DNA of 64,000 bases from Cyanophora paradoxa CCMP329. Its lineage: Eukaryota; Plantae; Glaucophyta. The DNA is taken from positions 62,001-126,000 of the forward strand of contig QPMI01000199.1 in NCBI GenBank assembly GCA_004431415.1, in the 5' to 3' direction. The translations under genes and the position numbers were made by a program. The notes beneath the pieces were generated by a model. The model ran no database searches and was not told the origin of the DNA. It saw only the letters and a program-made list of their open reading frames with translations. This document shows, in pieces, positions 1,750-59,823 of this stretch; position 1 is the stretch's first letter; every line of letters starts with the position of its first letter.

Positions 1750-1794
1750 TTCTGTTTCTCTGTATGTGTTACACATAAAATGTTTTCTCATCTG

Positions 1795-1802: not shown

Positions 1803-1879
1803 TGAGTTGTCTTTAAATACGTTTCTACATTTTTAAACGCGTTTCATTTCCGAAAAAATAATGTTCCTATAAAGCAAAG

Positions 1880-5749: not shown

Positions 5750-5769
5750 TCCCTATATATACCTTAGAT

Positions 5770-6615
5770 TTATGGTAGCGGATCGCTACCGCCGACGGGA
5801 TTGTATAGATTGGTATTTAGATATTGCCCGAATCGGTTAGCTGTCGCGATTGCATCGTTTCTTTCGGCATACATAATAACTCTGTAATTTCCGAGTTGTG
5901 TAGCTCTTATTATAAATTGGTTATCCTGTGTATCTAAAAGAGGTATTGAGTGGAACGCCTGACCGAAATTATCTATGGGGATAATATGTATCGTTAGGCG
6001 CGGTCTTGCTCCATCGGTTCTTCTACATAATGCGTAAATGTCCTCAGGTATCGTGTCTCTATATCTATAATGATTTCCTAACGGTTCTAAAACATCGGCT
6101 ACCGCTGTTTGTAAACTAATAATGATTGTATAAATCTTTATTAGGTAAGGCTCATTCATACCTGGGCAATACGTCCTAATTCGTGTGTTCTCATCATCGG
6201 GATTTGGTTGATCATTAACCAAAAGAGGCGCTCCAATGATACCACCCACTCGGAGACCATCACCAATGTAAGCGCCTCCCGATCTACATTTAATTGCTCC
6301 ATTTCTCGATTCATAAGCAAAGTTAGTAACCTTGTTATCATCGTTATAACTATCGGGATCTCCATAAAAAGCGTTAAAGTTTGCATTTGTAACAAGAAGT
6401 TTCGTAGTTTTCACAATTCCGTTATTTTTGTCACATCTTAACTCTTTCAGTCGCAATTTATGCGTATCACCAAAAGTATTAAGAGTAGGTGCAAGTTCCG
6501 TAGATTCGAGACCATCTACATTATCGATAACGGCATGTTGTAATACGTGATTTGCAGGCGCGGCTAATGAAAGTTGCGCTGTTAAGATACGCTCAGGTGG
6601 AGCGGGTGCCGCCAT
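5770..6615 (-). CDS. Fibre/spike family protein (shared N-terminal adaptor)
   Basis: KELRCDKNNGIVKTT..V.N...SGGAYIGDG block shared with four other cassette genes. Confidence 0.65.
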   Translation of the reverse strand: MAAPAPPERILTAQLSLAAPANHVLQHAVIDNVDGLESTELAPTLNTFGDTHKLRLKELRCDKNNGIVKTTKLLVTNANFNAFYGDPDSYNDDNKVTNFAYESRNGAIKCRSGGAYIGDGLRVGGIIGAPLLVNDQPNPDDENTRIRTYCPGMNEPYLIKIYTIIISLQTAVADVLEPLGNHYRYRDTIPEDIYALCRRTDGARPRLTIHIIPIDNFGQAFHSIPLLDTQDNQFIIRATQLGNYRVIMYAERNDAIATANRFGQYLNTNLYNPVGGSDPLP

Positions 6616-6634
6616 TTAATATATTAAAACATAA

Positions 6635-7477
6635 TTATGGTGTGGGATCACCTGGGAACGGATCATCGTAGAAGTTATTTAGGTTGTTATCGGGATTGAG
6701 ACCACGTGTAGCCACCACAGCCGCTGGATCTGTTCGCATTCCGAAAATGAGAATATCATAACCTCCTACTTCTGTTGTCCAAACATTAAACGTAGCGGGG
6801 TTCTGGTTGTCGAATTCCACCCAACCTCTACCGCGTCCGATTCCCTGAACAAAGAAAGTATAAGCTGGTCCGATAATACCATTTTGTGAGCGACATATGG
6901 AAGCAATAGATTTAGGAATAGCAATATTTGGTAATAACCAATTTCCCCTAATTCCATCGGGTTGTGTTGCATTTACGTTATCTACCCCAACTCTGACCAT
7001 TCCAAACACATACGGATAATCACCACATGGAGTATACATACGTATACGTTGCGGATTGTCCGCATGCTCAGGTAGAGTATCGGGAATATCGGTTACAGAA
7101 GCGGAGGATGCAAGCATACCCGACACACGACAACCGCCACCAATAACAGCGCCTCCTGATCGGACAACAGCGGCGGCACGTTCTCCGTCAAAATCTAACG
7201 TTCTAATATCCACACCCCATGCGTCAGGTTGCCCGATACCCGCGTGAAAATTCGCATTTGTTACAAGGAGCTGAGTAGTTTTAACCACTCCCGAATTCTT
7301 ATCGGCTCGGAGTTCTTTTACTCGTATCATACTGTTTTTATCGAATGCATTCGCGGAATTAGCCCGTTCCGTAGATTCCACACCACGGATTTCGTCGGCT
7401 ACCTCATGTTGTCGAAAGTGGACGGCGGGCGATCCCAAAGCCTAAACTGGTAATTGCACACGATTGTATTCGCCCAT
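6635..7477 (-). pseudogene. Fibre/spike family protein with early stop
   Basis: Same adaptor block; ATG 7477 in frame across TAG at 7442-7444. Confidence 0.6.
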
Positions 7478-7527
7478 TGCTTCTTTTACTAAGAAGGAAA
7501 GAAAAATAAACGACTTTCAAGAAGGAC

Positions 7528-7563
7528 ATGCAAGATACATGCCTTTCTTATGCATGATCTATG
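7528..7563. repeat. 36-bp non-coding hairpin identical to 47271-47306
   Basis: ATGCAAGATACATGCCTTTCTTATGCATGATCTATG in both; stem AGAT-A-CATGC/GCATG-ATCT. Confidence 0.9.
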
Positions 7564-7637
7564 AAAAATAACAATTAACCCAGTCGTCAGACAAGCTGCC
7601 TTGGCTGCGCCTCTCTCATTCTTCGAATTCGAATTCT

Positions 7638-7901
7638 TTACATAGGAGCACTCACAGGAATTTCGCTTGCCTTTCGAACAGTCCCCCTTGCAAACGCTTG
7701 CTCTACAATCGCTTCCTTTGTGAGTGGAATCGGAATTCCAGCGGCAATACACGATTTAACTTCTTTGTCCACAATCTCATCAATCGCGATTCTCGCCCGA
7801 TTATGAGCCGCATTATCGATCCAATCCTGAACAGAGTAGGCACAGTATTCCATTCCCAGTTTTTCAGTATCAGTTAGAACCACTTGATAGATGTTCGACA
7901 T
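7638..7901 (-). CDS. 87-aa phage-like fibre-associated protein (possible chaperone)
   Basis: SVQDWIDNAAHNRARIAIDEIV; close paralog at 47329-47592, both directly after a C1q-like gene. Confidence 0.7.
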   Translation of the reverse strand: MSNIYQVVLTDTEKLGMEYCAYSVQDWIDNAAHNRARIAIDEIVDKEVKSCIAAGIPIPLTKEAIVEQAFARGTVRKASEIPVSAPM

Positions 7902-7909
7902 TCTTTTAC

Positions 7910-8925
7910 TTACGAAGCAGAAATTAATTCACCCGACCATTGACAATTTGCTGTTCCAACAGCTCCCATAATTGTTCCTGCAACATATAACCTTCCTGTG
8001 TCACCAGCATACATTGCTACAATGACATTCAAGCATATAGTTCTATGATAGTTCGTTCCTAACGCTGATGTATAACCATCGAGATTTTTACCATTAGGAG
8101 GCCCATCATTGACTCTAAATGCTACATATGTATCAACATTATTTAGACTTGTTATGCCAGTGAACACGAATCTGTAATGACCTGACACAGGAGCTGTGAA
8201 GTAACCTGTGGAAACATTTACGTGATTTCCATGGTTTAGAAATGTATGCCCATAGGCTCCAATATAAGCCGCACCAGTTACAGTTCCAGAAACACCAACA
8301 CAAAACCGGGGATGATTAGGAAGTGCAAGATAGGAATTAGTCCCATTAATAGTGAGACCTTTCCAGCTATAAGTTCCTGCAACTGCCCCACCTGTTGCAT
8401 TAGTGTGTGATGCTGTGAAAGTAGAAGCGATATTCTCATTATTTCGCTTGATCACCAACTCTGTATTTGCCCCAGAATCAATAGTCGTCGTTTTAACTGT
8501 CCCAAATGATCCAGCTGTAAGGCTTCCAGTAACTGTTGCATTCCCGCTCACTGTTGCATTCCCATTCACTCCAAGTCCAGTCCCAATCCATGCCCCGCCA
8601 CTGTAAACTTGAAAAGCCGCCGAATTCCTGTCAGCCGGATTAAAAGCCGTTTTGGAATCCTGTTGACCTTCATATAGATTTTCTTTGGTGACCAGCCCCG
8701 AAGATATTGCGGGTCGATTCGATACGATCAGTTCAGTAGCTTTAACGATTCCACCAGCCTTGTCAGCTCTGAGTTCTTTGACTCTGAGAATGGAGGTCTC
8801 ATTGAAAGAATCGGTTTTCGCTGTCTCAGTCGAAGGAATGACTCACTTAGATCATATATAGTGTGTTGCACGTTGTGGACAGCACTGGCTGATAAGGAAA
8901 ACACAGGGGTAAACACAGTCGACAT
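7910..8925 (-). pseudogene. Fibre protein with C1q/TNF-like tip, frameshifted near 8842
   Basis: ORF 8728-8925 gives the N-terminus; shifted frame gives RVKELRADKAGGIVKAT and runs into ORF 7910-8569 with TGYFTAPVSGHYRF...WSGELI. Confidence 0.75.
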
Positions 8926-8980
8926 CTTTTGATTGTTCTTTATTATTACGTGAGAATATTATTATTATTACGTGAGAATA

Positions 8981-11900
8981 TTATGCTACCATCTTTCCTG
9001 TTGCTATATAACTCATTTGATAGTGGAAAAGTCCGATGCTTTCATTGAATTCATAATTTGCCGAAACTGTTACATTAACAGTAAAGGTTGTTGTTGAGGA
9101 ACTTGTGACACCATATACCAATACATATGAACCACCATTATACCCTTGTTTCAGATTGAGAACCACTTCTGGGGCTTGCGCAAATGCTTTTGGGAATGTG
9201 ACAACCTGTGAAAATCCCCAATGACCCGGACCTACGATTGTTAAAGAATTTGAAAAACTCCCTGTCTGTATATACTGGTCTTTATTGACCCGTTGTTCTG
9301 AAACAAGTTTTGCAATCTTTGTATTATCTGTTTCATCCATTGCATAATATGCTCTTGCGTAAGCATTTCCCCGACATAATAACGTTTTATCGTATATATT
9401 TGCGGAATTGTGGAAAAACCATTGTTCTAAATAAAGTGGTGCATCTGGTTGGTAAATTTGACCGGATCCCACATACATGGTATTATTTGCTGTGATCGTG
9501 TTCGCTACAAATGGGTCTAAGGTTGGGAAATCCGTGATTTCCGATTTTGTGTGAGTATGGGCGAAATCTGTTATATTTGCCTTTGTGTGACTATGTGCGA
9601 AATCTGTGATATCTGCTTTAAAATGAGAGTGAGGACCGACAGTCGTAGAAGCTGTTGGCTTCCCGTATATATTATTCCAATGGAGGAAACCACTGTGTGA
9701 CGATATAGCGGGGTTTTTGCTCCAACCAACAGTAATCGGACCTGGAAGATAAATTCTTCCTATTTGTCCTTGAACACCAACTTTAACAAGTCCTTCACAA
9801 TTTATTGCAGCAAACTGTTTGAAATCTCTTACAGGATTATATGCAGGAGCATAGGCATTTACTCGTAAACGAGTATAAGTATTGGTTGATGGTTCAATTC
9901 CAACAACATCAAAGTATCTACTGTCATACTGACACGTATAATAGATATAACATGATTTCATTCCTGTTGGAACATTCCAATACATCTTACAGCTACTACA
10001 ATCATCATCACCATCAATCCATGTGTTTGCCCAAGTGCTTGTGTCACCTACAAGTGGTTGCCCAACATAATCTCTCCAATCTCCTGTGCGGTCTGTGGAA
10101 ATACCACTTGTAGCGTCAAAATCAGTTGGTGAAGTGTATGTTGGTGTATTTATCAGATCATCATAGTTTCCAGTTGTTGCCACAGTCGCAAATGTCGGGA
10201 AGTCTGTAATTTGAGACTTTGTGTGGGTATGGGCAAAATCTGTTATTTCTGACTTTGTGTGAGTGTGTGAAAAATCTGTAATCTCTGACTTTGTGTGAGT
10301 GTGTAGATCAGGTGCGAAGGTTAATGGTCGAACATTGTGAACATTGGGTAATTCAATGCGACTAATTGGAGTGTTTGGATCTAATACATATTCAGCACCA
10401 AGGTGGACAACAGGAAATGTTTGATCATTCGGAGTAGTAACAAAGAAATTAGAAGCATGCACATCACCTGCAATTGTTCCACCTGTTAGTGGTAAATAAT
10501 CATGATCGTGTGAATCAGGTGGATAGGTCGATGGGGGATTGACAATATGCTCCCAAAAATGCCTGTGAACATTGGGTAATTCAAGACGACTAAATGGGGT
10601 GTTTGGATCTAATACATATTCAGCACCAAGGTGGACAACAGGGAATGACTGATCATTCGGAGTGTCCACAAAGAAATTCGGAGCATGCACATCACCTGTG
10701 AGAGTCCCGCCTGTAAGGGGTAAATAATCCCCAAGAGCCGACGTTAATTCGGTATCTGTTACATAATCTTCAAGAATTGCTGCAAGTTCTGTATCATCTA
10801 CATAGTTTTTGCTTTCGAGGTAATCATCTGTAACAACACCGGAAAGGGTGGTATTGTGTAAGTTTTTAGCTGCCATTCTCTGATTGACTTCTAAGGCGCC
10901 ACCTGTTGTCGTTTTTATCCATGCAATCTCGCATTTTCCGTGATCATCTGTGGGTTGTCCCACAACAGGAAGATAGTTTACAACTTTCTCCCTTGTGAAA
11001 ACTATCTTAGGTCTTGCTCCATCATATGCACTTTGATCTGTTACATTTACTTGTATTGCTGCTGAAAAATCCGCTTCTTGTCCTATTTCTCCTGGGTGAT
11101 AATTCGTAACATAGATACTGGGGAAAGTATCATTTACTCCTACATTGAAATCGCCACTATAAACTCCATTTACGATTGGATCCCGTGTAATCTTACAGCA
11201 AGAGTTCCCACCATCGGTGTGCCTGTTTCACCTGTGAATGTCCCATTGAGATTTACGTAATGATCATTCAAAAACAGCCTTTCAGGTGTATTAATCGATT
11301 GGTAAAGTGTGACCCCATTAAAAACATTTCCAATTGCATTCAATTGCGCAAAAACTGGCTGCTCATCTATTTCCTCCCATGGGTGCCTGTGGTTACTATT
11401 GGTAATCTCTGAATAATCATGAGTGTGTTTTCCCGGTGGGAAGGTCGATGGGGGATTTGTGATATCTTCCCATAAATGCTTATGGGCGAAATCTGTTATT
11501 TGATCTTTTGTGTGAGTATGGGCGAAATCTGTTATTTGATCTTTTGTGTGAGTGTGGGCGAAATCTGTAATATCTGCTTTTGTGTGTGTTTGTTTTGCTA
11601 ACCAATCTAAAACAACATTCGAAGTGGGATGATTTGGTAGGTTTGCTTCAATATTCACAGTTAAGTAGTCGACTATTAAATTACTTCCATAAATATTACT
11701 TGCCCATATATTACTTGCCCATAGATTACTGGTATATAAGTTACTTGCCCATATGTTACTTGCTGAAATGTTACTAGTATAAATGTTACTTGTGACTGTA
11801 AGGTTTGTGTCGTTTTTGATAACAAATAAAGAAAGTATATTAGTAAGTTCGCCTTCATCAATGTATCCTTGATGTTCTAAATAATCCTCTGTTACCACTC

Positions 11901-13848
11901 TCGATATATCTTCATTGTGTATGTTTTTGGCGCTTGCTCTTTGATTGATTTCTAATAAACCTTCACCAACTCCGCCATTATAATTTGTTTTTATCCATGC
12001 TACCTCACATCTTCTGTAATCATCTCGATCTCCTATAAAAGTATTAGGTAAAAGACGCTCCCGAGTAAATACTAATTTCGGTCTCGATTGGTCAAAATCA
12101 CTAACATCTGTTACATTAATTTGTATTGCTGCATCTTTGTTATCATAACTATTTGGATCTAATGGAAGTGACGGTATCGGAGGTAATACTTCTGTCATCG
12201 GGATGTCCTCAGGGTAGTAACTTGTTAGATAAATTCCGGGTTTTGTCTCATACAAACCAAAATTACCACTAACTTCTAAAATCCCATCTCTTCTGGGTGG
12301 TCTAATGAATAATTCGGCTTCCATTCCTGTGCCTGCTTCTATTCCCATGCGATTAAGGTAGTGGTCATTTAATTGTTATCTTTCTTCTATGTTAATATTT
12401 CTATAAAGACTTACACCATGTTGGAAATCTGTTAATACATTTCCTGCTGATGCGAAAGTAGGTTGCTCATCGATTTCGTCCCAATTATGCCTGTGGTCTG
12501 CTGGTGGAAATTCAGTAGGTATGTTATCTAAATCTTCCCAATCGTGCCTATGCTCTGTCGGTGGGAATCTTTCCGGTTTGTTTAGAATGTCATCCCATTC
12601 GTGATCGTGGGGATCTGGTGGGAATGTGTCAGGTTTATTAATAATATCCCTCCAATCTACGGTAAAATCGAAAAATCCCGGTTGTAATCCGTCTGGTAAT
12701 AACTCTTCATCTGGTATATGTGGTTGTTCGTAATCTATGTTAGGCGGATCTAATCCATGTGGTAAAAGTTGTTCGTCGTAAGGTTGATAACGATCATATA
12801 ACATATGGTTAGGATCAAATCCATCCGGCAATTCTTCCACGTCTTCACATTCTTTATGTTCGAGAGGTATAACATTAATGTCTGGTGCTAAGAGTTCCTC
12901 AGCGGGCGGTTTGTAATCTTTAAAAACTGGTTTATTATGGACTTTTTCCCAACTAACAAAATGTTGCCCAAACGCTACCGTCTCATCTGCTGTGTATTCT
13001 CTTCCTGGTTGTTTCTTTGGTGTAAGATCTGGTGGATCCCATGGAAGTGGAAACGGAACCGGAGTAGGTCCGTAATGCTCTATGATTTCTCTTATGGTCT
13101 TTTCACTAACGAGCCGCTCCCCATTTGCATAAACATTACTACCATGAATATTTCGCCATTGTCGGGTTCTAATACCAAGGTCTTTGGTGTTTGTTTTCAA
13201 AGGTAAAAGGTGGCGATCCATTTCGACAAGATCGGGATGTAAATGTATAGCTACTGGTTGACTGGGACTACTGTCGACTGTGATCGAATCCTTTTCTTTG
13301 GAAGTATCCGGTGGAAGAGTGAAACCAAACAGTGCATTAGTGTTTGAATTGTTGACAATGTCCTTTGGGTAAACATTGTTGGTGTGGCGAATCTGATTCT
13401 CTTCACCATGTGGGGCAACCTGTAATATCTGGGGAATTTGTGCTATCGAATTTGATCCTTCATTATAGATTCTCAAACCACTCCGATGAACTCCCTTTTC
13501 ATCCTGGACATTAAAAACCAAACGTCCGCTATCATAACGTGTGGGAATATCGGGATGCGTTCCACTTGCTTTAAGTTTCCGTGGTCTCCTTCTTGTTGCC
13601 TTGATCTCCGCAACCGCGTTTTTTTTTACATTCCCCAAACTGAAAGCTATACTTACATCTTCTTTCTCTGGGTCTGTTTGATTCAGCGATAAAGCATGAA
13701 TCCTGGGATGCGTCTTACTGGGTTTATCGGCGCTCTGATCAATAGAAGCCGATCCTTTGATGGTGATATTATCAAAGTTAACATGTTTAGTGTTTCCTTT
13801 ACCACTACCTGTTATGGTTTGTAAATTTGCTGGATAATTGAAACTCAT
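8981..13848 (-). pseudogene. Giant modular fibre protein (~1600 aa) split by a stop (12376-12378) and a frameshift (~11193)
   Basis: ORFs 490, 392 and 660 aa join: ER*QLNDHY matches internal repeat ERLFLNDHY; many HTHTKxxITDF and HxHxWxxI repeats; C-terminal TFPKAFAQAPEV...YIATG lectin-like tip. Confidence 0.7.
10335..10730 (-). repeat. Recent internal duplication (~168 bp x2) in fibre gene
   Basis: DYLPLTGGT..GDVHA.NFFV.TPNDQ.FPVVHLGAEYVLDPNTP.SR.ELPNVH occurs twice, nearly identical in DNA. Confidence 0.85.
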
Positions 13849-13897
13849 CCCTGATTACTCTAATAATAGAGATTTATTAAATTTCAATAAAGTAAAG

Positions 13898-15436
13898 ATG
13901 CCCTTACGCGTAGTTTTAGCTTTGTCTGGCGGCGGCGCACGTGGTATTATCATAACAAGGTTGTTAAAAGAAATAGAAACAAGAACAGGTAAACGCGTTA
14001 TTGATTTGGTCGATCTTGTAAGTGGAACGTCCACAGGCGGTATTATTGCTATTGGTCTCAATGTGAAAAATCCCGAATTTCCCGATGAACCTAAATTAAC
14101 AGCTACCGACCTTCACAATACTTACCTATATCATCTTCCTCTCATCTTTGCGAATCCGCGGAATATCATAGAGAATGCACTTTTCAATACTAAATATGAT
14201 GTATCACCATTAGAAACCGCTATTTTCTCTGTGACTGGGGAAGCTCTCATAAAAGATTCACTAAAAGATGTGGTTATTACGACGTTCGACACTGTAAGCA
14301 TGAAACCAATTTTCATAGCAAATGATAATGATTACAAGACTATACCAAGTAAAATAGCGGCACGTTCTACTTCCGCCGCTCCTACATATTTTGCTCCTGT
14401 CGATTACGAGGGGATGTGTTTAATAGATGGTGCGATATCAGGTAACAATAACCCAAGTGTTTGTGGTTACAGTCACGCAAAAAAGATATATGATAACGAT
14501 GACGATATTATAGTTATTAGCATATCATGTGGTGAGGTTAACGAAATCGACACCCCGAATGTGGGTTACTCTTACGAAAGTGTGAATACCTGGGGTATTC
14601 TATCATGGATTGCTTCCACCTCAGGAAGTCCATTAATCAATATGCTAATGGCTGCAAGTGAATTATCGGCTCTTGAAAAGATGCAAGAGTTTTTACCATA
14701 TAATGATGACCAAGGATATGCGCGATACTATCGTATCTCTGTGCCGCTTCCGAAAGATATCTTAAACTCCCTCGATGATACTTCTAAGATTCCGGACATG
14801 ATAGCGGCGACTGAAACGTATATAGAAGCAAACGACGCCATGATAAATCGACTCTGTGAGTTACTTGTAACAAACTATGAGATTAAGAACCCTGTCAGAT
14901 CATATGTATCATCCACTCTTAATAACATACCTCCCATTGACGCTAACTGGTATCTTCTATCGGATAATGCGTTTACCGCTTCTTCTGCCAAATTTGGAAA
15001 AGAGGCATTTAAAGCCCGCCCATCATTAACTGGATGGGAAGCGAATGCATCCGCAATTAACGGAATATGGGAAACGCCTACTGAATATTTGCAAATAGCC
15101 TTCCCATATACATTTGAGGTCGCTTCTATAATTGCTTATGGGTCAGGTATAACAACTGCCTTTATTAAAACTTTCAATGTTGCGACATCGCAAGATGGTA
15201 TAACATGGTCATTTATCAAATATGAGGGTGTAAATAGAATGTTTGTATGTGAGAATATAAATAATGCTAATAACTCTGGGGATGTATCATATGCTATGGG
15301 GTTCCCACTTTCGGTAAACGATGTATTTTATATAGGTTTTCCACTGAGAACACGATATATACGTATTTATCCTTTGGTATATATAAATGCCCCGACTATG
15401 AGAGTCGATGTAACGGGCGCATTTATTAGAAATTAA
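13898..15436 (+). CDS. Patatin-like phospholipase fused to F5/8 type C (discoidin) domain
   Basis: SGGGARG, GTSTG, SAAPTYF, IDGA; C-terminal EYLQIAF...TFNVATSQDGITW...RYIRIYP...MRV. Start set by alignment to B homolog. Confidence 0.9.
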   Translation: MPLRVVLALSGGGARGIIITRLLKEIETRTGKRVIDLVDLVSGTSTGGIIAIGLNVKNPEFPDEPKLTATDLHNTYLYHLPLIFANPRNIIENALFNTKYDVSPLETAIFSVTGEALIKDSLKDVVITTFDTVSMKPIFIANDNDYKTIPSKIAARSTSAAPTYFAPVDYEGMCLIDGAISGNNNPSVCGYSHAKKIYDNDDDIIVISISCGEVNEIDTPNVGYSYESVNTWGILSWIASTSGSPLINMLMAASELSALEKMQEFLPYNDDQGYARYYRISVPLPKDILNSLDDTSKIPDMIAATETYIEANDAMINRLCELLVTNYEIKNPVRSYVSSTLNNIPPIDANWYLLSDNAFTASSAKFGKEAFKARPSLTGWEANASAINGIWETPTEYLQIAFPYTFEVASIIAYGSGITTAFIKTFNVATSQDGITWSFIKYEGVNRMFVCENINNANNSGDVSYAMGFPLSVNDVFYIGFPLRTRYIRIYPLVYINAPTMRVDVTGAFIRN

Positions 15437-16731: not shown

Positions 16732-16775
16732 CTTTACCTTATTTCCGTAATTTAATTTTTCTATATAATTCATAA

Positions 16776-17177: not shown

Positions 17178-17194
17178 TAAGTGGTAAAAGAAGA

Positions 17195-40685: not shown

Positions 40686-41468
40686 TTATAAACCGCGTTT
40701 ATATCTCATCAATTTATTGCTATGGATTTGGCTTTTCACTTCTTTAGGGGCTTCCTCTTTCTCTGGTGGTTTCAGTTCATCTTCTTTCTTTTTTGGCTTT
40801 CTGTGGAAGCGAGGAAATGGGAAATCTTTCACAAGCTCAGCTTTATCTACATAGTATTTAACTGAGTAGTTTGCAGAGGACCAAATGATATACTGATAGG
40901 AGTGAACATACTCTTCAAACATCTTGTAGAAATCCTCTTTATTTCGCATTATATTGTATTCTTCCTCTATGGCTTCAAGTTCTTTGCGATTTGCAGCACT
41001 GAGAAACATAGCATAGTCCGAATTAACTCGAATAGTCGAAGAAACTTTTCTTAGCTTTTGTGTGATGCAGATAATGGATATTTTCGAATGGCGACCTCTG
41101 GAATACAGAGATCCGATTATTTTATCCCTTGTGAGATCGACTATCTCATTATCGATTAAATCATCTAAAACCACACACAATTGGTTAACAGGTTCACCCT
41201 TTTCTATTTTCTCTTGCCTCTCATCTAGCAATTTAGCAATGTAAGGGGCATCCCATTTTCCCAGTTGCAGTGTTGCAACCTTATCCCAAAAATGATTGAA
41301 GCTGGTTCCACTCACAACTAATACAACATCAATCTTTTTGGCATCATGTAATTGCTTTAACCAATACTTTACAGCTTCTGATTTACCAGTTGCTGATTTT
41401 CCTATTGCCAATACACGAAATGGTGGTTCTATCATTTCACCAGCCACAAATTCATCCAAATCAGTCAT
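40686..41468 (-). CDS. A32/FtsK-HerA genome packaging ATPase
   Basis: GKSATGKS, VVLDD, RGRH, ITQ, IRVN. Confidence 0.92.
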   Translation of the reverse strand: MTDLDEFVAGEMIEPPFRVLAIGKSATGKSEAVKYWLKQLHDAKKIDVVLVVSGTSFNHFWDKVATLQLGKWDAPYIAKLLDERQEKIEKGEPVNQLCVVLDDLIDNEIVDLTRDKIIGSLYSRGRHSKISIICITQKLRKVSSTIRVNSDYAMFLSAANRKELEAIEEEYNIMRNKEDFYKMFEEYVHSYQYIIWSSANYSVKYYVDKAELVKDFPFPRFHRKPKKKEDELKPPEKEEAPKEVKSQIHSNKLMRYKRGL

Positions 41469-41533
41469 TGTTGTATATCTTTCTTAATAAAGACATATAA
41501 AAATAATGCAGGGAGACTGAATATCGTCACAAT

Positions 41534-42901
41534 CTACAAATTTATACGACGAAGCCCATCTTTGTCCAAAATTATGAAACTATGCATGAGAGCGCGAACA
41601 TTAACATCGATTACCTTATCTGAAGGCATGTAGAGGGTGAGGAAGGAAGAAGAGGAATTTGTTAAATCAACATACCCAGACTGGGCAATATTTCGAATTG
41701 CCTTTTCTCCATCAAGGCAGAATGGGAGTCCTGAAAGGACATAGCGATCAGCAACCTTATCCATGTTAGAGCATTTGAAGGCATCAGCAATTAGCTCAGC
41801 ACCTTTGAGTAGGGAAATTGGCTCAGTGGCAAAAAGTCGCTGACCATTTATTTCAGTTGTGAATGTGATGTCTTTGGAGTTGGCATAGGTCTTAAGAACA
41901 CTGTGGGAGCCATTGGATTTGTCAACAGTTTCATGATCACGAACTGAAACAAGCAGAGCATATACAAGACCTGAGATTTGAGAGAGGTTAATTCGATTGG
42001 GTTGGGCATTGCCCTTGGCAGGGAAAGCACTAGCATCTACAAATCCAATATCAAGGGAGGGAATAGCCATGCCAGTAGTCTTTACTTTTTCAATTACAGT
42101 AGCGAAAAGCTCATCAGAAACATTAATAGCATGCATGTAAAGGCGAGGAGAAGTAATAGAAATAACAGGGGTTGTTGCACCAAGACTGAAAGTTGTGATA
42201 TTTTGACCAACATGGGCAAGGGTTCCATCTGTAAAGTTTCCAAGACCATCATCAGCAGTTGCATCAACAGTTCCAACAGCAGTTGTGAGTTCACGACCAC
42301 CATAGGAAGTTTCAACATAGCCTTTGCCAGCATCCTTAAACCAAACAGTAACAACCATTTCACCAGATAAAGCACCAAGGGGAAGATAGTGATTTAGCCA
42401 AGGCACTGGGATTTCAACGAAAAATGAGCCACCGAGTCGGTTGGTTCCATGAGCAGGGATACCATGAACCATGCCCATTGATCGCTTCTTTTTAGCTAGT
42501 TGATCCTCCGAATAATAGACCAGGGGGAAATGAGCAAGGAAATCAGAGGGGATATGGTAGGTGTAAGATCCATAGGTAATTTCAAGTCGCTGAACTAAAG
42601 CACCAACTGGGCGAGTGTATCCATTGCGAACAAGGTCCGTATCACCAGCAAAAGTGATGGCTGGAAGGTCGAAAGCAAGTTCGAGTTTTCCACAGAAATT
42701 GTAGCGAGGTAGCTTGAAGGAAATGCGATTTCCAACATTATTCTCAAAAGTATTGCTGGGATTCACAACTACTAGAACTGGCTTAGACTTGGATTCGAGA
42801 CCAAGCATAAGGGAGTTATCCAGGAAAAAGGCTTTCGCCTCCTCTGGGGTTGTAAGGGCTTCTTTCAGCGAAAGTCTTTGAAGAGTGGAAGTGATATCCA
42901 T
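41534..42901 (-). CDS. Major capsid protein (double jelly-roll, inferred)
   Basis: 455 aa, beta-rich, GNRISFKLPR...L.L..DLP...LVQRLEI N-terminal pattern; between ATPase and mCP; homolog in C. Confidence 0.8.
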   Translation of the reverse strand: MDITSTLQRLSLKEALTTPEEAKAFFLDNSLMLGLESKSKPVLVVVNPSNTFENNVGNRISFKLPRYNFCGKLELAFDLPAITFAGDTDLVRNGYTRPVGALVQRLEITYGSYTYHIPSDFLAHFPLVYYSEDQLAKKKRSMGMVHGIPAHGTNRLGGSFFVEIPVPWLNHYLPLGALSGEMVVTVWFKDAGKGYVETSYGGRELTTAVGTVDATADDGLGNFTDGTLAHVGQNITTFSLGATTPVISITSPRLYMHAINVSDELFATVIEKVKTTGMAIPSLDIGFVDASAFPAKGNAQPNRINLSQISGLVYALLVSVRDHETVDKSNGSHSVLKTYANSKDITFTTEINGQRLFATEPISLLKGAELIADAFKCSNMDKVADRYVLSGLPFCLDGEKAIRNIAQSGYVDLTNSSSSFLTLYMPSDKVIDVNVRALMHSFIILDKDGLRRINL

Positions 42902-42954
42902 TATATTCTCTTTTATTATACTGCAACATAAAAAATCTACCAATGATCCTTAAT

Positions 42955-43965
42955 TTATGCGAAGCTTGTAATAACTGGATAGGAAGGGTGAAGCTGTGAC
43001 ATTCGCATCTTAAAGTATTCATAAACTGGGTCCCCAGCTGGCTCATCACCATAGCGAATTTCAAAGGTAAGATGAACAGGTTGACCCTCAAAATCAATTG
43101 GTTCATTAATAGCATTTACAATATCAACCGAGAAAGTGGATAATCCAACCTTCTTATTATAGTATTTGTAAAGTGGATGAGCCTCTGTCGAATTGTAAAC
43201 TACATGCTCACCATAATCTTTATCAGGGACCACTATTTTATGGAAGTAACCAGTCAGAAGACCATCCCCACATTGCACCAGATCACCCAGCTCCTTTACT
43301 CTCACAAACAAAACACTGTCCCTGGTCTTCTCAGGCTCAAATGAAGATATAATACCGTTTACTCGAGTTCCAGTAAAGATACCATCAGTGAGAGCATCAT
43401 ACACTTGTGATTGGATTGAGGAATTGCCATATCTTCCAGGATCAAGACCAAGCAGTCTCCCTGAACTCAATAGCTTTTGAATTGTTTGCAGGTTTGGATT
43501 TACAGCAAGTGAGAAAGCCAGGTAAAAAGGTTTTTCGGAATGGAATACTATTCGTTTCAGTGACTCATCCCATTTGCAGCGAAGAGATGGTTTAGGATTT
43601 TTTAAATCGAACTTTTCATTAATAACATTCACCAGTTGTTGGTGGCTTTGAATGGGGGCTTTGCGACTTATAATGATTTGTTTCCACTGTTCAAAGTCCT
43701 CAGCTGGGCGAACTGTGGGGATACCATCAATTCCAGCTCCCGCATATTGTTCAGAATAGTAAATACTAAATGAATTGTCAATTGTTACATCTCCAACTTT
43801 GGTTTCACCACTCACCATAGGGATGCTGTTATAAAATTCGGCTGATACCAGTCTCACAGCCCTCACATTCTCATAAGAACTTGGGAGTCTAGCCACAAAG
43901 CTTGATGTGGGACCATCACCAGAGATTGTATTAAATGAGCTAACCTCGATGTAATCCACAGGCAT
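42955..43965 (-). CDS. Minor capsid (penton) protein 1
   Basis: YENVRAVRLVSAEF.NS ... VDIVN..NEPIDFEG..VHLTFEI. Confidence 0.75.
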   Translation of the reverse strand: MPVDYIEVSSFNTISGDGPTSSFVARLPSSYENVRAVRLVSAEFYNSIPMVSGETKVGDVTIDNSFSIYYSEQYAGAGIDGIPTVRPAEDFEQWKQIIISRKAPIQSHQQLVNVINEKFDLKNPKPSLRCKWDESLKRIVFHSEKPFYLAFSLAVNPNLQTIQKLLSSGRLLGLDPGRYGNSSIQSQVYDALTDGIFTGTRVNGIISSFEPEKTRDSVLFVRVKELGDLVQCGDGLLTGYFHKIVVPDKDYGEHVVYNSTEAHPLYKYYNKKVGLSTFSVDIVNAINEPIDFEGQPVHLTFEIRYGDEPAGDPVYEYFKMRMSQLHPSYPVITSFA

Positions 43966-43994
43966 TCTTCTTTTATCTATATTTATATATTAAA

Positions 43995-44927
43995 ATGAAT
44001 CGACTTGTTAATATTGATAGCAGGGATAGAAGCCAAGGGGAATCTGAAAACTCTTACAGGGTCACCCTCACAACTCCAGTAGAGAGACCAAGAGAATGCA
44101 GAGTTCTCTATGCAGAGATTCCAAACAGTATCTATAACAGTGTGGGAACTGATCATATAACAGTTGATTTTAACTACCAAGATGGTTCATACAATGAAAT
44201 CATCACACAGAAAGTGTATCCCCTTCCCAGTGGCTACATTAACCAGGGTCATTTTGGGGTCACACATCCCTATAATTATGGGCTGAACTATTCAAGCTTC
44301 AAAACCATTGCAGATAAAACTGTGTTTTTTGAGTTCAAGATATTCTACAATCCAACTACCTATAAAGTGGAGTTTTACAGTAACCATGAGTTCCGTTTTA
44401 TTGCAAGCAACAAGCGAATAGGGAAGCTTTTGGGTGTAAGTTCTACTGAATACACCAATGGTTATTATAGCACTCCTCCTGCTGGTGGATCTCCATATCG
44501 ACCTGAGAACCTTTTAAAGTATGATGGCAAACCTATTACACCTGATCACCCAGCTTGGGGAATCACCTTCTCAGGACCCAGACTCTCCTCAAAGCCCTTG
44601 CAGTATTATTTCACCAGTAATAAGATGTCTGATATGAATGCTGAGCAGTATCTGTACATGCATATTAAAGAGCTTGCCCCCTTTGCAAGTAGACACAATA
44701 TAATTCCGAAATCGCAACCACACAACCAAGGGGCTATCCTACGATTGCAATTGAGTAAAGATATAGGTGGCTATGTTTACCATAGTGGTGAGCATGCAGA
44801 ATTTATTCAAATCAATGACAGAAACCTGGTGATAAGGGAACTCACAGTTGAGTTTAAAGATTACTTTGGTGAACTGATTGATATGAATGGAATCGATAAT
44901 TCGTTTCAGTTGGAGTTTATCGAATAA
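43995..44927 (+). CDS. Minor capsid (penton) protein 2
   Basis: VNIDSRDR...AEIPNS ... LTVEFKDYFGELIDMNGIDNSFQLEF. Confidence 0.75.
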   Translation: MNRLVNIDSRDRSQGESENSYRVTLTTPVERPRECRVLYAEIPNSIYNSVGTDHITVDFNYQDGSYNEIITQKVYPLPSGYINQGHFGVTHPYNYGLNYSSFKTIADKTVFFEFKIFYNPTTYKVEFYSNHEFRFIASNKRIGKLLGVSSTEYTNGYYSTPPAGGSPYRPENLLKYDGKPITPDHPAWGITFSGPRLSSKPLQYYFTSNKMSDMNAEQYLYMHIKELAPFASRHNIIPKSQPHNQGAILRLQLSKDIGGYVYHSGEHAEFIQINDRNLVIRELTVEFKDYFGELIDMNGIDNSFQLEFIE

Positions 44928-46473
44928 AGGCACCTGTGAAATCAACTCTCATTGTGGGAGCATTCACATACACAAGGGGATAAATGCGAATATATTTGAT
45001 TCTGAGAGAATAACCTATGTAAAAAGCATCCTTGATGCTGAGAGGAAATCCACTCAATAGAGCCACATCACCAGAGTTGTGAGCATTGTTAATGTTCTCA
45101 CAGACATATATTTTGTTTTGCCCATCTGATCGAATAAAAGACCAGTTGATCCCATCAGTGGATGTTGCCACATTGAAAGTCTTAATAAAAGCATTGGTGT
45201 CCCCTGATCCATAGGCAATCACAGAAGAGAGTTCAAAAGTATATGGGAAAGCAACTTGAAGGTATTCAGTGGGGTTTTCCCATATCTGTTCAGGAGCATA
45301 GGCTCCAGCTTCCCAGCCAAATGCTGAAGGTCTTGCCATGAAAGGCTCTTTACCTGTCACAGAGGATGAGGCAGTAAAGGCATCATCTGCAAGCTGATAC
45401 CAATTGGCATCCAAAGGAGGTGATGTAGTGAGAGTGGATGAGATGTAAGCCTTTGTAGGGTTCTTTAGTTCATAGTTTGCTACTAGTAGGCTGCAAAGCT
45501 TATTGATCATATCATTGTTTGCTGCTATGTATGTTTCAGTGAATGCTAGCATATCTGGGATCTTAGATGTGTCATCCAGAGAGCTTACAATGTGATTTGG
45601 AAGAGGGACTGATAGCCTATAGTATCTCCCATAATCTTGATCATAGTTGTAGGGTAACAACTCCTCCATCTTATCAAGGGCAGAAAGCTCACTTGCAGCC
45701 ATGAGCATGTTAATCAATGGGCTTCCATCTGTTGAGGCAATCCATGAGAGAATACCCCAGCTGTTTACAGTCTCATAAGCATAACCCACATAATCAGACT
45801 CTAAATGTGGGTCCACCTCACCACAAGAGATACTTATTACTATGATATCATCATCATCACTGTAAATCTTCTTTGCATGGCTGTAACCACACACACTGGG
45901 ATTATTGTTTCCCGAAATGGCACCATCAATGAGACAGACAAATACTCCCCGATTGAAATCAACAATGCTTACAGGAGAGAAATATGTAGGAGCAGCAGAA
46001 GTAGCCCTAGCAGCAATCTTACAAGGCATAAAGTTGTAGTTGTTGTCATTTGTGATAAATATTGGTTTCATATTCTGAGTATCAAAGGATGTAATCACAA
46101 TGTCCTTTAGGGAATCCTGTATTAGTGATTCACCAGTAACTGAATTGATTGCAGTCTCCAAGGGTCCGACATCATACTTTGTGTTAAATAGGGCATTTTC
46201 GATTATATTTCGAGGATTTGCGAAAATCAAGGGCAGTTGAGTTAGGTAAATATTGTGTAAATCGTTTGCTGTGAGTTTAGGTTCACCTGGTTTATCAGGA
46301 TGCCTGATGTTTAACCCAATAGCAATGATCCCACCAGTGGAAGTTCCACTCACAACATCCACAAGATCGATTATTCTCCTGCCAGTTCGATTTTCGATTT
46401 CTTTTAGCAGCCTGGTTATGATAATGCCCCTTGCACCCCCGCCAGAAAGACTTAAAACGACCTTGAGAGGCAT
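44917..46473 (-). CDS. Patatin-like phospholipase-F5/8 fusion
   Basis: SGGGARG, GTSTG, IDGA, discoidin tail; highly similar to A copy. Confidence 0.9.
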   Translation of the reverse strand: MPLKVVLSLSGGGARGIIITRLLKEIENRTGRRIIDLVDVVSGTSTGGIIAIGLNIRHPDKPGEPKLTANDLHNIYLTQLPLIFANPRNIIENALFNTKYDVGPLETAINSVTGESLIQDSLKDIVITSFDTQNMKPIFITNDNNYNFMPCKIAARATSAAPTYFSPVSIVDFNRGVFVCLIDGAISGNNNPSVCGYSHAKKIYSDDDDIIVISISCGEVDPHLESDYVGYAYETVNSWGILSWIASTDGSPLINMLMAASELSALDKMEELLPYNYDQDYGRYYRLSVPLPNHIVSSLDDTSKIPDMLAFTETYIAANNDMINKLCSLLVANYELKNPTKAYISSTLTTSPPLDANWYQLADDAFTASSSVTGKEPFMARPSAFGWEAGAYAPEQIWENPTEYLQVAFPYTFELSSVIAYGSGDTNAFIKTFNVATSTDGINWSFIRSDGQNKIYVCENINNAHNSGDVALLSGFPLSIKDAFYIGYSLRIKYIRIYPLVYVNAPTMRVDFTGAFIR

Positions 46474-46516
46474 CTTTTACTTATCAGGAATTTTATAAAT
46501 CCATATAGTAAAAGCC

Positions 46517-46768
46517 ATGAGCTTCAATTACCCACCCAATCTAGAAACAATTCAAGATGATAATGCAAGCAGCACCAAGCATGTGAACTTTGATAATATT
46601 AAAGTAAAGGGTTCAGTTTCGATTGAACACAGTTCCGATAATTCATCCAAGACTCAATCAAGGGAGCATGCTTTATCTGTGAATCAAACTGATCCAAATA
46701 AAGAGGATGTCAGTGTTGCTTTTAGTTTGGGTAATGTGAAAGCAAACCAAGTGGCAGAGATCAAAGCC
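46517..46768 (+). pseudogene. 5' stub of giant fibre gene of B, truncated
   Basis: MSFNYP...KHVNFDNI...FSLGNVK...VAEIKA matches A gene at 13848; homology stops at 46768. Confidence 0.85.
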
Positions 46769-47270
46769 AGCTCGCATGCAGGTGAACCCCACTAATTCCC
46801 GCCGACCTATTTCAGTGAGCAAATATAAAACATCCTTTATTCTCAGTCACAAATTAATAAAATCGCTGTAATTCGCACTGAGCCACACTGTCTTTTATAA
46901 ACCTCTCATGCATCCTTACTGAAACCAATCACGAAAACCTAAATTTCATCTTCTCTCCGATCTCTTACCATTCTCAGTAAGCCCTAAACCCGTCCTCCGA
47001 TCTCTCAGTAAGGCACAGTAAGACCCCATTATTACGAAATGTTCCCGATCGTTGCCGGACTGTTTTCAGTAATCCAAAAAGAAAACACAGGTGAACCCCA
47101 CCGAGAGAGTACGATGATAAGTACGAGATCGATTGAGTTCGCAAGTTTGTGCTGCCGAAAATGCCCACCTGCACAAACTTGCGCACCCCATCGACAAAGT
47201 ACGATGATCGACGAAGTACGACGATAGACCACGATTAATTGCAACTGGAACCACTCGCGCCCCGCCCACT
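46769..47270. repeat. Probable left terminal repeat region of C
   Basis: CAGGTGAACCCCAC x2, TCTCAGTAAG words (also at 413), AGTACGA x4, 13-bp hairpin 47140-47183. Confidence 0.6.
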
Positions 47271-47328: not shown

Positions 47329-47592
47329 TCATTCCTCTGCAACTGTATTATACTCGATTGCTCTTTTCACAGTTCCCCTTTGGAATGCCTGTAATACAAT
47401 CGCTTCTTTTGTGGTTGGTATCTGAACTCCACCTGAGATGCAAGATTGAATCTCTTTCTGAACAATCTCATCAATTGCAATTCTTGCTCTGTTGTGGGCA
47501 GCATTATCAATCCAGTCTTGAACAGATAAAGCGCAATATTCCATTCCCAATTTTTCAGTATCTGAGAGAATGACTTGGTAGATATTCGACAT
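47329..47592 (-). CDS. 87-aa phage-like fibre-associated protein
   Basis: Paralog of 7638-7901. Confidence 0.7.
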   Translation of the reverse strand: MSNIYQVILSDTEKLGMEYCALSVQDWIDNAAHNRARIAIDEIVQKEIQSCISGGVQIPTTKEAIVLQAFQRGTVKRAIEYNTVAEE

Positions 47593-49745: not shown

Positions 49746-51308
49746 TTAAATTGCGACAGCAATGTAATGGATTGTTACAGTTTTGGCTGTATTGTCCATT
49801 GCATATGGATCAGTGAAAAGTTCACATGTGAAATAGTCACTGTAAACATTCAACAGGTTCACAGTAAATATGACTGGTGTTGTAGCGTTTGCTTGTCCTT
49901 CATGCCTTACTGTTGCTGTTACAACAGGAGGAGAAGTGAATGCACTGCTAAAATAGATGGTTAGATTGAACACATATAAATTATTGTAATTCAATACAGG
50001 AGTGGTGTAAGTATATTTTCCTGCTTTTATTTTCCCATTAAAATATGCATTAAGTTGACTGGTAAGATCTGCTTCTGTAATACATCTACTTATAGTCGAG
50101 CTATCTGTGGGGTTCATAGCATAAAAATTTCTTGCATAAGCATTTCCACGAACAAGTAAAGTTTGATCAAAGTAATTCTGTGAATTGTGGAAAAACCATG
50201 TTTCATCAAACATAGGTCCTGCTGGTTCTACTATCTGACCCGATCCTACATACATTGTGTTGTTGGCTCTAATTGTGGTTGCTGTGAAGGGATCAAGAGT
50301 TGGTCTATTGGTCAAATCATTGTAGTTGCCCGAGAAAATCGCTGGTTTGTTATAAATATCTGTATTCCAATCATGAGTGTGTGCAAAATCTGTAATCTCT
50401 GCCTTTGTGTGATTGTGAGCAAAATCTGTAATCTCTGCCTTAGTGTGGGTATGACCAACATATGCAACATTTCCAAGATCGGTAATCTGTGACTTTGTAT
50501 GAGTGTGTGCAAAATCTGTAATCTCAGATTTAAAATGGGTATGAGCAAAATTTGTAATATCCGCTCTGGTGTGGGTGTGTGCAAAATCGGTTATCTGTGA
50601 TTTGGTGTGAGTGTGTGCAAAATCTGTGATTTCTGCCTTTGTGTGGGTATGCGCTCTATTATTCAGATCGAGAAAACTACCCGAAAATGCAACAGGGTGT
50701 AGATTTGCTGCGGTGGGTTTATTAATGAGATCGTTGTAGTCTCCTGTAAATGAAACAGTTTTCAGTTCCCCCCTTCCTACATAATCCGAAGGGAGATCAA
50801 TTTTAATGGGCATTATAGCTGGATCATCTGGGATCACATACTCTCCACCTGTGTGAACCACAGGGTATCTTCGAATATACATATTGGATGCACCCATAAG
50901 AGGTGCCACAATGGGCACATCGGAGTTAACGAGATTGCAAGTGATGGAAAAAATCGTTTTGGGGGCAAACAGATTGCAATCAAAGGTCACAGTGGCGGGA
51001 TCGATAGAAGGATCGACATTTGAACAGATCTGAAACATCCACCCACCCACACAGTTGCAATTTAGATTTCGAAAGGCTGTCCCTGCCATTGCATCCACAT
51101 AGCCAATCCCATTTGCTATGTCATAGATGTGACCAAACTCGTAACCAAAAATGTCATTCCACAGATTGGAAGCCATAGCTCCCGTCACATACCCTTTCAA
51201 ATTTACAAGTAGGTCATTGGATTCACTGGGTATATTGCTATGGGTTATGTAAAATTGATTATTCAACACAGCATTCCTAATTGTCGTCTCTACTATGGGC
51301 TCCGTCAT
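49746..51308 (-). CDS. Fibre protein with HTHTKxxITDF repeats and lectin-like tip
   Basis: About eight HxH repeats; constant block NNTMYVGSGQI...WFFHNS shared with A; FSSAFTSPPVV...YIAV tip. Confidence 0.8.
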   Translation of the reverse strand: MTEPIVETTIRNAVLNNQFYITHSNIPSESNDLLVNLKGYVTGAMASNLWNDIFGYEFGHIYDIANGIGYVDAMAGTAFRNLNCNCVGGWMFQICSNVDPSIDPATVTFDCNLFAPKTIFSITCNLVNSDVPIVAPLMGASNMYIRRYPVVHTGGEYVIPDDPAIMPIKIDLPSDYVGRGELKTVSFTGDYNDLINKPTAANLHPVAFSGSFLDLNNRAHTHTKAEITDFAHTHTKSQITDFAHTHTRADITNFAHTHFKSEITDFAHTHTKSQITDLGNVAYVGHTHTKAEITDFAHNHTKAEITDFAHTHDWNTDIYNKPAIFSGNYNDLTNRPTLDPFTATTIRANNTMYVGSGQIVEPAGPMFDETWFFHNSQNYFDQTLLVRGNAYARNFYAMNPTDSSTISRCITEADLTSQLNAYFNGKIKAGKYTYTTPVLNYNNLYVFNLTIYFSSAFTSPPVVTATVRHEGQANATTPVIFTVNLLNVYSDYFTCELFTDPYAMDNTAKTVTIHYIAVAI

Positions 51309-54300: not shown

Positions 54301-55072
54301 AAGCCGGAATTTCCTCTGCAAATGATATAGTCGTTTTATCAAGTGCTAAGGATCTCACATTCGGAGCATTGGCGCCAATTATATCCACAACGTTCCCGTT
54401 TTCGACAATTTCTAAGGTCGGTTTCGCGGGGTCTAATGTGAAAACGCTCTCTGTTATCTGGGGAACCGATTCGCTCTTCTGAATCACAAAGGATTCGATG
54501 TGTAGGTTACAGGTTGCGACATTGGTGGCGAAGAAAGACTCTGAATTAAATGAGTTTACGTTTAGGGTATCCGTAGTGATGTTACTTGCTGTAATATTGC
54601 TCGTCGTTAGATTACCTGCTGAGAGATCATGGACGACCTCTACCTTTGTTTTCCGTGTGGATACTCCCGCTATAAGTGTGCTATTATCCACGATTCTCAT
54701 AGCTGCATTTTGGAAACCGCTCTCATCTTGAATGAAGAAGTTTAAGCGACCTCTATCGAATGCTTTTGGGATGTTCCTACGATTATATCGCACCGTTTTC
54801 GGTAGCTGGCGGGTTGCCTGAATGCTGGCGACTCTGTTTCGTTCGTTATCATCAAGTAAAAAGTCGATTCCAAGTTTATGATCCCCCTTCTCGACGTTCA
54901 TTAGCTGCAAAGCTGCGGGTCTGCTCGGTGTCCCACTGACTGGATCTTCGCGGTCTGCATTGTAGTTTATTCTCAGAGACCCGCGAATTTCAGTGTTTAC
55001 CTGATCAGTGTCCTCTATCTGAGTGGTCGAATTAATAACTCGTGCATCTGGTCGCGGATTCAGGAACGACAT
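51347..55072 (-). CDS. Giant fibre-like protein (1241 aa) with C-terminal transmembrane helix
   Basis: N-terminus homologous to A 13848 gene (ATR...GRL.F..QDE.G); DLG...RW fibre motifs; lectin-like repeats; Pro/Asn stalk then LVLMILLPILGALGLVLAY. Confidence 0.8.
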   Translation of the reverse strand: MSFLNPRPDARVINSTTQIEDTDQVNTEIRGSLRINYNADREDPVSGTPSRPAALQLMNVEKGDHKLGIDFLLDDNERNRVASIQATRQLPKTVRYNRRNIPKAFDRGRLNFFIQDESGFQNAAMRIVDNSTLIAGVSTRKTKVEVVHDLSAGNLTTSNITASNITTDTLNVNSFNSESFFATNVATCNLHIESFVIQKSESVPQITESVFTLDPAKPTLEIVENGNVVDIIGANAPNVRSLALDKTTISFAEEIPAFTTEKQALRTDHVYITRDNINDLLGKDIVKAFLEFERNKNTKDSSQDGTLTTHTTEIAALQSEINALFAADGALAITLAHILSKRNIYPATDNTYRVGLSNLRWSELHGVSMFASNLILPFNHSLRPNQILTSDNALISYTDFNSNLSRSVSRTETYTVEGYPQQIANGVFVAYVGKPTYTFTWDQLGVTGFETTIPTVSLVDHTTYYNPITNNNESNKAFIHNVTSTGFQVSFVINETYNLLIIRNNLLTSEATISFTLTINYITPEFDSEPRVKVYRDLQGSNIVPFSQNFDLGANSLRWNTVYSLSANTCNIVVAGSSATIGDLTAPFRKEYLKELYITKSDLPDAISLVLSPTPSISYHNVKDTSNVVRSGSKVFQASEIGSVSYRYLAGVPASFNFTFESPFVSPPTIEITDPNLYVVNDGSSTSLQNAPAGYSPFVATNITTTGFTLVGNATVTYALSGYPIGFNFAKFNLSVIPAVSLSPPFTVSWKATGTIPRFDPEDRLKIRYPLDVTDIHTTRINGQNFVFNGTNATLIDNRVTNNYFFDSRYINTCNIVIHKTFEDRSKTLTVTLPTHSNVSDGFYYYLLNRYYTSYIPYPSETVSMSYPKVTLTSTNADFFGSTDFMRDFFYFTSSTDGLLVYYSYKYESIATQIESHPNTDVITAGDKKYIKTASPWVCTVRLDDRYTPNLNNIGLHSTCNIYVQGAISASKYFEGGNCDAGHRLLSRNGFFESFSGTALPPFIRDTVYDTTCNIWVCRSVSNPPVTQELYKYLADTYGAISGSSTGNPATAPIVFANAYTAPTSLAGSTEPPPNDPNPNQPNPDPDSQDPPTTNPDPNTPPNNPTNPTNPVGAPGTNPGTLVLMILLPILGALGLVLAYKFRALCCACLDRTIAGAGNKYSTPELNVTQTAEGDVGLEVRSADGNALSVVRTDRPPASRAAPKKSRAQELAEQTMNNDRDFMAEMAQREGRIYEHIPNVM

Positions 55073-55115
55073 CCTCTTTATAAACAAAGAAGATATATAA
55101 GAAGTATATAAGATA

Positions 55116-57462: not shown

Positions 57463-57478
57463 AATCTATTATAGTAAG

Positions 57479-58404: not shown

Positions 58405-58451
58405 GCCCTTTAAATTATTTTCTGATCCCAAAGATAAGAGAAGAAACGCTC

Positions 58452-59765: not shown

Positions 59766-59823
59766 GGAATTCGTGCGATTACCACATTCAGTCTTATTTT
59801 TCTATTGTTTTTATAGTGAAAGA

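Follow-up and report, generated by a model that had tools for sequence, protein, structure and literature searches.

We found that three low-GC elements in one stretch of the Cyanophora paradoxa CCMP329 genome each carry a gene for a patatin joined to an F5/8 (discoidin) or F5/8-like domain, placed head-to-head with a gene that begins with a fibre N-terminal domain. The stretch, hereafter the window, comprises 64,000 nucleotides of contig QPMI01000199.1 (assembly GCA_004431415.1, positions 62,001 to 126,000), and all coordinates below are window positions. The elements are designated A (to ~18400), B (~28900-46800) and C (from ~46800 onward). The better-favored account, in our assessment, is that this cassette is the portion of the structural gene block that serves attachment and entry in one family of endogenous polinton-like viruses (PLVs), with its products being parts of the virion. 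The basis for this account consists of gene order, domain content, intact Ser/Asp motifs, purifying selection, and the recurrence of the fibre-patatin junction in further copies. A trimer of the fibre N-terminal domain is predicted by modelling, packaging and a role in entry are suggested by analogy with the PLV PgVV and with mavirus, and late timing is presumed.

The patatin fusions comprise 512 amino acids in A (13898..15436, forward strand; GGGARG, GTSTG with Ser45, and DGA with Asp177), 518 in B (44917..46473, reverse strand; 76% identical to A), and 497 in C (55116..56609, forward strand; 39% identical to A and B, with a divergent F5/8-like region). All three matched the patatin family PF01734 (83, 75, and 78 bits versus a gathering score of 27.7). 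The GGGxRG loop, the GTSTG serine, and the DG(A/C) aspartate were intact in every protein; the enzyme is a putative phospholipase. Profile comparison returned patatin (E 2.5e-27) and, with a joint profile, the factor VIII C2 discoidin domain (E 2.2e-7), as well as neuropilin domains. The original prediction had assigned an F5/8 domain to all three proteins; this holds by Pfam for B (28.4 versus 28.2 bits), but A falls below the cut-off (24.5 bits, E 3e-5) and C has no Pfam match, its F5/8-like region being drawn from an alignment to B (27% over 154 codons). Between A and B, the proportion of nonsynonymous differences in the patatin (pN) was 0.158 and that of synonymous differences (pS) 0.774, the latter saturated, while the F5/8 part had a ratio of nonsynonymous to synonymous rates (dN/dS) of ~0.06. 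These codon comparisons indicate that both the patatin and F5/8 domains were under purifying selection.

We placed the three patatins in a tree with 244 fetched patatins, namely those long enough to align among 270 (the best 120 of 551 matches and the best 150 of 12382). They formed one clade with a support of 0.999 and a long stem. None of the 270 fetched matches extended into the F5/8 region, no homologue of that region was found among 219 candidates, and the two top patatin representatives were double patatins. The AlphaFold model of the fusion was poor (predicted local distance difference test, pLDDT, of 44, and below 50 across the F5/8 domain), and its Foldseek matches added little beyond sequence.

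On the fibre side, the original prediction of a giant fibre gene beside each patatin stood for C, where an open gene of 1241 amino acids was found (51347..55072, reverse strand), but not for B, which has a stump, nor for A, where the gene is broken into three pieces. The B stump (46517..46795, forward strand) comprises 92 codons, of which ~85 are homologous. In A, the first piece (12376..13848, reverse strand; 490 amino acids) carries the N-terminal domain predicted to trimerise and phage-tail-like repeats, and ends at an in-frame stop. The second piece (11170..12375, reverse strand) continues the same frame beyond that stop with a repeated module, and the third (8981..11227, reverse strand) lies in another frame and has weak PTR and C-terminal H-lectin-like matches. 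Together they form a repeated-module frame from 13848 to 8981, interrupted by the stop at 12376-12378 and by a frame change near 11185. Contigs from three public DNA runs had a one-base insertion at the frame change, which indicates that other copies, or the true sequence, differ from A at this site. The homology of the B fibre to A ends at about codon 85 and is followed by ~500 bp of unrelated sequence and then by C genes in the opposite direction. In this B/C junction (46772-47270), AGTACGA occurs four times and a 12-bp repeat lies at 46781 and 47090. The end of C may have been inserted into the B fibre gene here, the candidate events being that C was inserted in nested fashion, that sequence was deleted, or that the assembly joined separate pieces.

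The genes facing the patatins are divergent and have the N-terminal domain in common (69% identity over 85 amino acids between A and B; 34% over 109 between A and C), and A and B differ in this domain with a dN of 0.22 and a dS of 1.8. The A fibre pieces matched phage tail PHROGs. A Pfam search with the N-terminal domain of C was blank even at E values as high as 1, and no match to the domain was found among PDB sequences. In the Atlas, the C domain was closest to unnamed clusters (0.91-0.93) and to a T4 gp9/10-like cluster (0.90), which we treat as a lead only. The AlphaFold model of the domain was poor (pLDDT 33). Structure prediction of fibre trimers, as proposed with the original prediction, gave a predicted homotrimer for residues 1-150 of the A fibre, with three copies scoring 0.81 versus 0.00 for the best of three controls; in calibration, 21/30 solved pairs and 0/23 single chains reached the mark for a pass. 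The runs agreed in at least 58% of contacts, with a pLDDT of at least 55.

The giant protein of C differs from that of A in having a hydrophobic 19-mer (mean hydropathy 2.64), the only segment above 1.7 among 15 proteins. Its C-terminus (51347-51720, reverse strand) consists of a Pro/Asn-rich linker, the predicted transmembrane segment at residues ~1121-1139, and a charged tail of ~100 amino acids, and its N-terminus is not hydrophobic. A membrane-type C-terminus of this kind would be unusual for the fibre of a non-enveloped virus.

The head-to-head arrangement of patatin and fibre genes across an AT-rich spacer was borne out in all three elements. The spacers measure 49 bp in A (13849..13897; 78% AT), 43 bp in B (46474..46516), and 43 bp in C (55073..55115), with 74-79% AT overall and fibre starts at 13848, 46517, and 55072. 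Such spacers are ordinary in this window. Among 38 listed genes, a count that omits broken pieces, 8/37 adjacent pairs are head-to-head; the gaps of the other five pairs are 2, 16, 29, 126, and 241 bp long. Tandem genes separated by 19-65 bp have gaps as AT-rich as the divergent spacers (64-79%). No common promoter motif was seen by eye in the 60-nt upstream sequences, and a scan for sigma-70 promoters, a model not apt for a eukaryotic virus, gave chance-level results. Co-expression of patatin and fibre is suggested by geometry only, and this geometry is common to other gene pairs here.

We also assessed whether the pairing persists despite differing neighbours, as had been claimed. This was the case for A only, since B and C have a longer structural block in common, running in the order fibre, patatin, two minor-capsid-like genes, major capsid protein (MCP), ATPase, and two more genes at 30-39% identity. 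In A, the fibre-patatin block lies between the polymerase and the integrase, two genes that are adjacent in B. The pairing is conserved by descent, and A is the single informative rearrangement for the linkage, in which the fibres stay with the patatin and the capsid neighbours are replaced.

Further copies were sought in public DNA runs under one organism label, which contained ~60% of sampled words and many variants. The copy comparison covered 32 of ~1600 records, so the counts are lower bounds. At least three further copies keep the fibre-patatin junction, with contigs that span the first 8-9 codons of the fibre, the spacer, and part of the patatin and that differ from A at 23 sites over 165-170 nt, 30 over 229, and 19 over 161. 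On the fibre side, a contig of 5036 nt found in three runs matched 75 nt up to 13605; the same contig matched the patatin with 35 differences in 194. Over the corresponding intervals, B differs from A at 42, 59, 38, and 55 sites, and since the contig counts are unlike these, the contigs represent other copies. Two runs have position 7513 joined to 8982, which marks copies that lack the C1q and 87-amino-acid genes of A described below, so the junction is retained among copies whose fibre kit differs.

Outside relatives with genomic context were found neither in viral contigs (searched for the MCP, fibre N-terminal domain, ATPase, and the N-terminal domain of the downstream genes) nor in metagenome contigs (MCP and patatin), although these searches used short exact patterns from 2-5 sequences and their blanks do not show absence. 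A patatin scan of the viral contigs returned one distant locus on a 171-kb contig, 26% identical over the patatin part only. The linkage of patatin and fibre was accordingly seen within one host organism only.

Downstream of the giant fibre, four more co-oriented genes were found in both A and C, as predicted, when the broken fibre of A is counted as one gene. Those of A, all on the reverse strand, encode a protein with a C1q head (7913..8842, start region broken), an 87-amino-acid protein (7638..7901), and two paralogues with unassigned heads (6635..7441, start region broken or truncated; 5770..6615). Those of C, likewise on the reverse strand, encode a 520-amino-acid fibre with PTR repeats and a weak H-lectin match (49746..51308), two paralogues with C1q heads (48638-49726 and 47615-48634), and an 87-amino-acid protein (47329..47592). 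An N-terminal domain of ~110 amino acids is common to five of these genes, three in A and two in C, and is followed by a C1q head in three and an unassigned head in two. The last fibre piece of A and the second gene of C both end in weak H-lectin matches after PTR repeats. The 87-amino-acid proteins are 80% identical, their genes are nearly saturated at synonymous sites between A and C, and no family was matched above the cut-off. Just downstream of these genes, a 41-nt non-coding stretch (7528-7568 in A, 47271-47311 in C) is 98% identical between the two elements and is possibly a terminator or recombination site. The read joint at 7513 adjoins this stretch.

The status of B and C as PLVs was examined through their structural blocks (40686..44927 and 56617..60690, each with genes on both strands). 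Both encode an A32 ATPase (40686-41468, reverse strand, in B; 59824-60690, forward strand, in C) recognized by the Pfam family Pox_A32 (E 6e-11 and 2e-10). The MCP of B (41534-42901, reverse strand) is double-jelly-roll-like by the Atlas, where its feature score was 0.98 to clusters with Capsid_N in 12-18% of members and a query recognition value below the mark of the tool. The MCP of C (58452-59765, forward strand) was identified by alignment to that of B, to which it is 33% identical. Neither matched Pfam or PDB sequences, and the sole outside relative found was the EukProt protein P0121 of Cyanophora paradoxa (59% identical). Each block further contains two putative minor capsid genes, tentatively labelled so from their position and a motif (42955-43965, reverse, and 43995-44927, forward, in B; 56617-57462, reverse, and 57479-58404, forward and in two frames, in C). 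Their position and size fit this role, the B and C orthologues are 26% identical, and no family was matched above the cut-off. It was noted that these genes form a second conserved divergent pair, whose head-to-head gap is 29 bp long in B and 16 bp long in C.

B additionally encodes a protein-primed polymerase and a primase-helicase (Pfam scan), and its integrase gene is split and 72-74% identical to that of A. The polymerase of A is split and 63% identical to that of B, and A has a weak rve match (Pfam scan). No capsid or ATPase gene was found in 1-18400 by tblastn with the capsid and ATPase proteins of B and C, so A is not established as a capsid-encoding virus within the window. Element-specific hairpin repeats at 280-456 and 17194-17652 in A and at 28978-29370 and 35988-36106 in B flank a polymerase-to-integrase segment, and the bracket of A additionally encloses the fibre-patatin block. 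A search for terminal inverted repeats or a target-site duplication found no paired element ends in the window; the hairpin clusters lie within both elements as well as close to the A/B boundary. Because the capsid genes of B lie outside its similar repeat bracket, those of A are probably located left of the window.

Taken together, the intact motifs, the purifying selection, and the position of the patatin, which in B and C has the fibre on one side and the minor-capsid-like genes on the other and in A remains beside the fibres, make attachment and membrane breaching the best reading of the cassette. The predicted trimeric fibres would dock on the capsid through their conserved N-terminal domains, while binding to the cell would fall to exchangeable heads of lectin-like or C1q type. 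The patatin lipase, likely packaged in the particle, would be drawn to the membrane by its discoidin domain and would cut it, letting the virus in. The head-to-head pair would be kept through common upstream promoter DNA and late timing, in the manner of the minor-capsid-like pair, and would not be a separate two-gene system.

Several points weigh against this reading. The virion location, expression, and activity of the cassette products rest on inference, the B fibre is a stump, and the A fibre is broken. Only A tests the linkage, and its break lies on the tail-to-tail side, which is the easiest breakpoint for any gene pair. All copies come from one organism label, and one 528-nt contig matches the patatin start only, followed by ~350 nt unlike A, and may be an exception. 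The trimer run used three copies without an alignment, unlike the calibration, in which eukaryotic proteins without an older solved relative passed in 1/7 cases; its pass may be owed to memory of similar fibres. Finally, a lipase of any kind was recorded in only 89/156 glaucophyte PLVs (table of PMC12220804).

An alternative is that the patatin acts as a non-virion late protein, remodelling or breaking host or giant-virus-factory membranes for assembly or exit and having its promoter in common with the fibre since both would be needed late. We regard this as unlikely, though deserving of weight. No strongly hydrophobic stretch was seen in the patatin, nor any physical tie to capsid or fibre, ascovirus patatins have been proposed to remodel membranes inside the infected cell (PMC12655742), and the predicted transmembrane segment of the C fibre-like protein hints at membrane steps in assembly. 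However, going by the Pfam and PDB matches, surface lipids or glycans are the usual ligands of discoidin domains, and unrelated putative lipases occur in PgVV and mavirus particles, both of which speak against this alternative. The pairing could also be inherited synteny lacking functional coupling, with the patatin gained once beside a fibre and retained because two divergent genes whose promoters overlap do not separate easily. The single patatin clade on its long stem points to one event, the whole block of B and C is kept at the same 30-39% identity with its second head-to-head pair included, and short AT-rich gaps occur throughout. This would explain the geometry but would leave unexplained the selection that keeps, among structural genes, a lipase with an attached membrane- or glycan-binding domain, and we give it a rather low probability.

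It appeared very improbable to us that the patatin serves as a suicide effector of the CapV type, killing the host cell when a giant virus infects it, with the provirus serving as antiviral defence. The closest solved structures include CapV and CapE, and the NCBIfam model CBASS_lipase (NF041079) matched at 123-135 bits; this is below its curated cut-off of 200. Moreover, a Pfam scan of 30 window proteins revealed no nucleotidyltransferase or cyclic-nucleotide synthase, and in the tree the CBASS-named match was no closer than Wolbachia patatins (2.79 versus 2.75 and 2.85). A further possibility, to which we assign a slim chance, concerns A itself, which could be a capsid-less hairpin-bracketed unit (~280 to 17650) of polymerase, integrase, and fibre-plus-lipase cassette that lends fibres and an entry enzyme to the capsids of neighbouring PLVs. 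If true, the cassette would be a mobile host-range module swapped among co-resident proviruses.

Other features of the window were also recorded. An LTR retrotransposon separates A from B, its long terminal repeats (18424-19381 and 27966-28924) being 99.9% identical. This Ty3/gypsy-like element (18424-28924) has a 4-bp duplication of its flank and a gag-pol region spread over several frames. As it lies between the ends of A and B, the two were probably directly adjacent before its insertion. Its near-identical repeats beside a gag-pol region in several frames suggest that assembly indels may account for part of the broken viral genes. A gene for S-adenosylmethionine decarboxylase (16776-17177, forward strand) lies head-to-head with the integrase across a 2-bp gap; this domain is listed for 66/156 glaucophyte PLVs (PMC12220804). 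An open frame leaves the window at 62670-64000 (forward strand), its start resembling by eye those of the A and B polymerase genes, and had no Pfam match.

We compared the cassette with known systems, as the original prediction had also called it an undescribed one. While the attachment and membrane-breaching part remains the best reading, the claim of novelty is not supported: the domain fusion and the entry idea are published in PMC12220804, lipase-aided PLV entry was proposed in PMC4642659, and a putative lipase together with a fibre was found in PgVV particles. PMC12220804 reports discoidin domains, whether standing alone, paired, or fused to patatin, in 23 PLVs of rhizarians and 11 of glaucophytes, proposes entry or endosomal escape for the discoidin-patatin proteins, and includes a PTR-PTR-H-lectin fibre from a C. 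paradoxa PLV. These PLVs thus have the same domain fusion, element kind, and proposed role as found here, and A, B, and C may belong to the family counted there. The head-to-head linkage, fibre N-terminal domain, C1q heads, and transmembrane fibre found here are undescribed in the text examined. Literature on patatin with polinton-like elements, on patatin with discoidin and viruses, and on C1q with polintons and fibers did not describe the linkage or the C1q heads either, although per-gene annotation of published elements may record them. Two 2026 preprints describe lipases as common PLV genes, one of them with repeats that enclose the replication modules separately from the structural module. 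What appears undescribed is limited to the constant gene pairing and the exchangeable fibre tips, the lipase type and role being already published.

Among more distant systems, particles of the PLV PgVV (Gezel-14T) contain a putative lipase and a phage-like fibre (bioRxiv 10.1101/2022.07.28.501842), but this lipase is an alpha/beta hydrolase lacking a discoidin domain and the fibre has T4 gp36-like repeats. Mavirus virions contain the hydrolase MV13 (PMC6048507), and virion-packed lipases have been proposed for PLV entry in PMC4642659, which cites a demonstrated entry role of the parvovirus phospholipase A2 (PLA2). MV13 and the polinton and parvovirus PLA2 enzymes likewise place a lipolytic enzyme in, or propose one for, the virion of small non-enveloped DNA viruses, with folds unrelated to patatin. 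The CBASS effectors CapV and CapE and Rickettsia Pat1, which is described as aiding vacuole escape (PMC12655742), have the same catalytic fold as the patatins of A, B, and C. However, they are bacterial and differ in genomic context, an F5/8 domain was present in none of the matches examined, and the scores of A, B, and C are below the CBASS cut-off.

These results add detail and not a new kind of system, namely the synteny, the C1q heads, an N-terminal domain of no known family, and a predicted membrane-anchored fibre variant. The way in which non-enveloped PLVs enter protist cells has been proposed but not shown, and the lipase of this family is a candidate for the task, looking intact and soluble and bearing its own targeting domain. 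With that lipase fixed beside a fibre kit with exchangeable heads, the standing entry hypothesis becomes directly testable.

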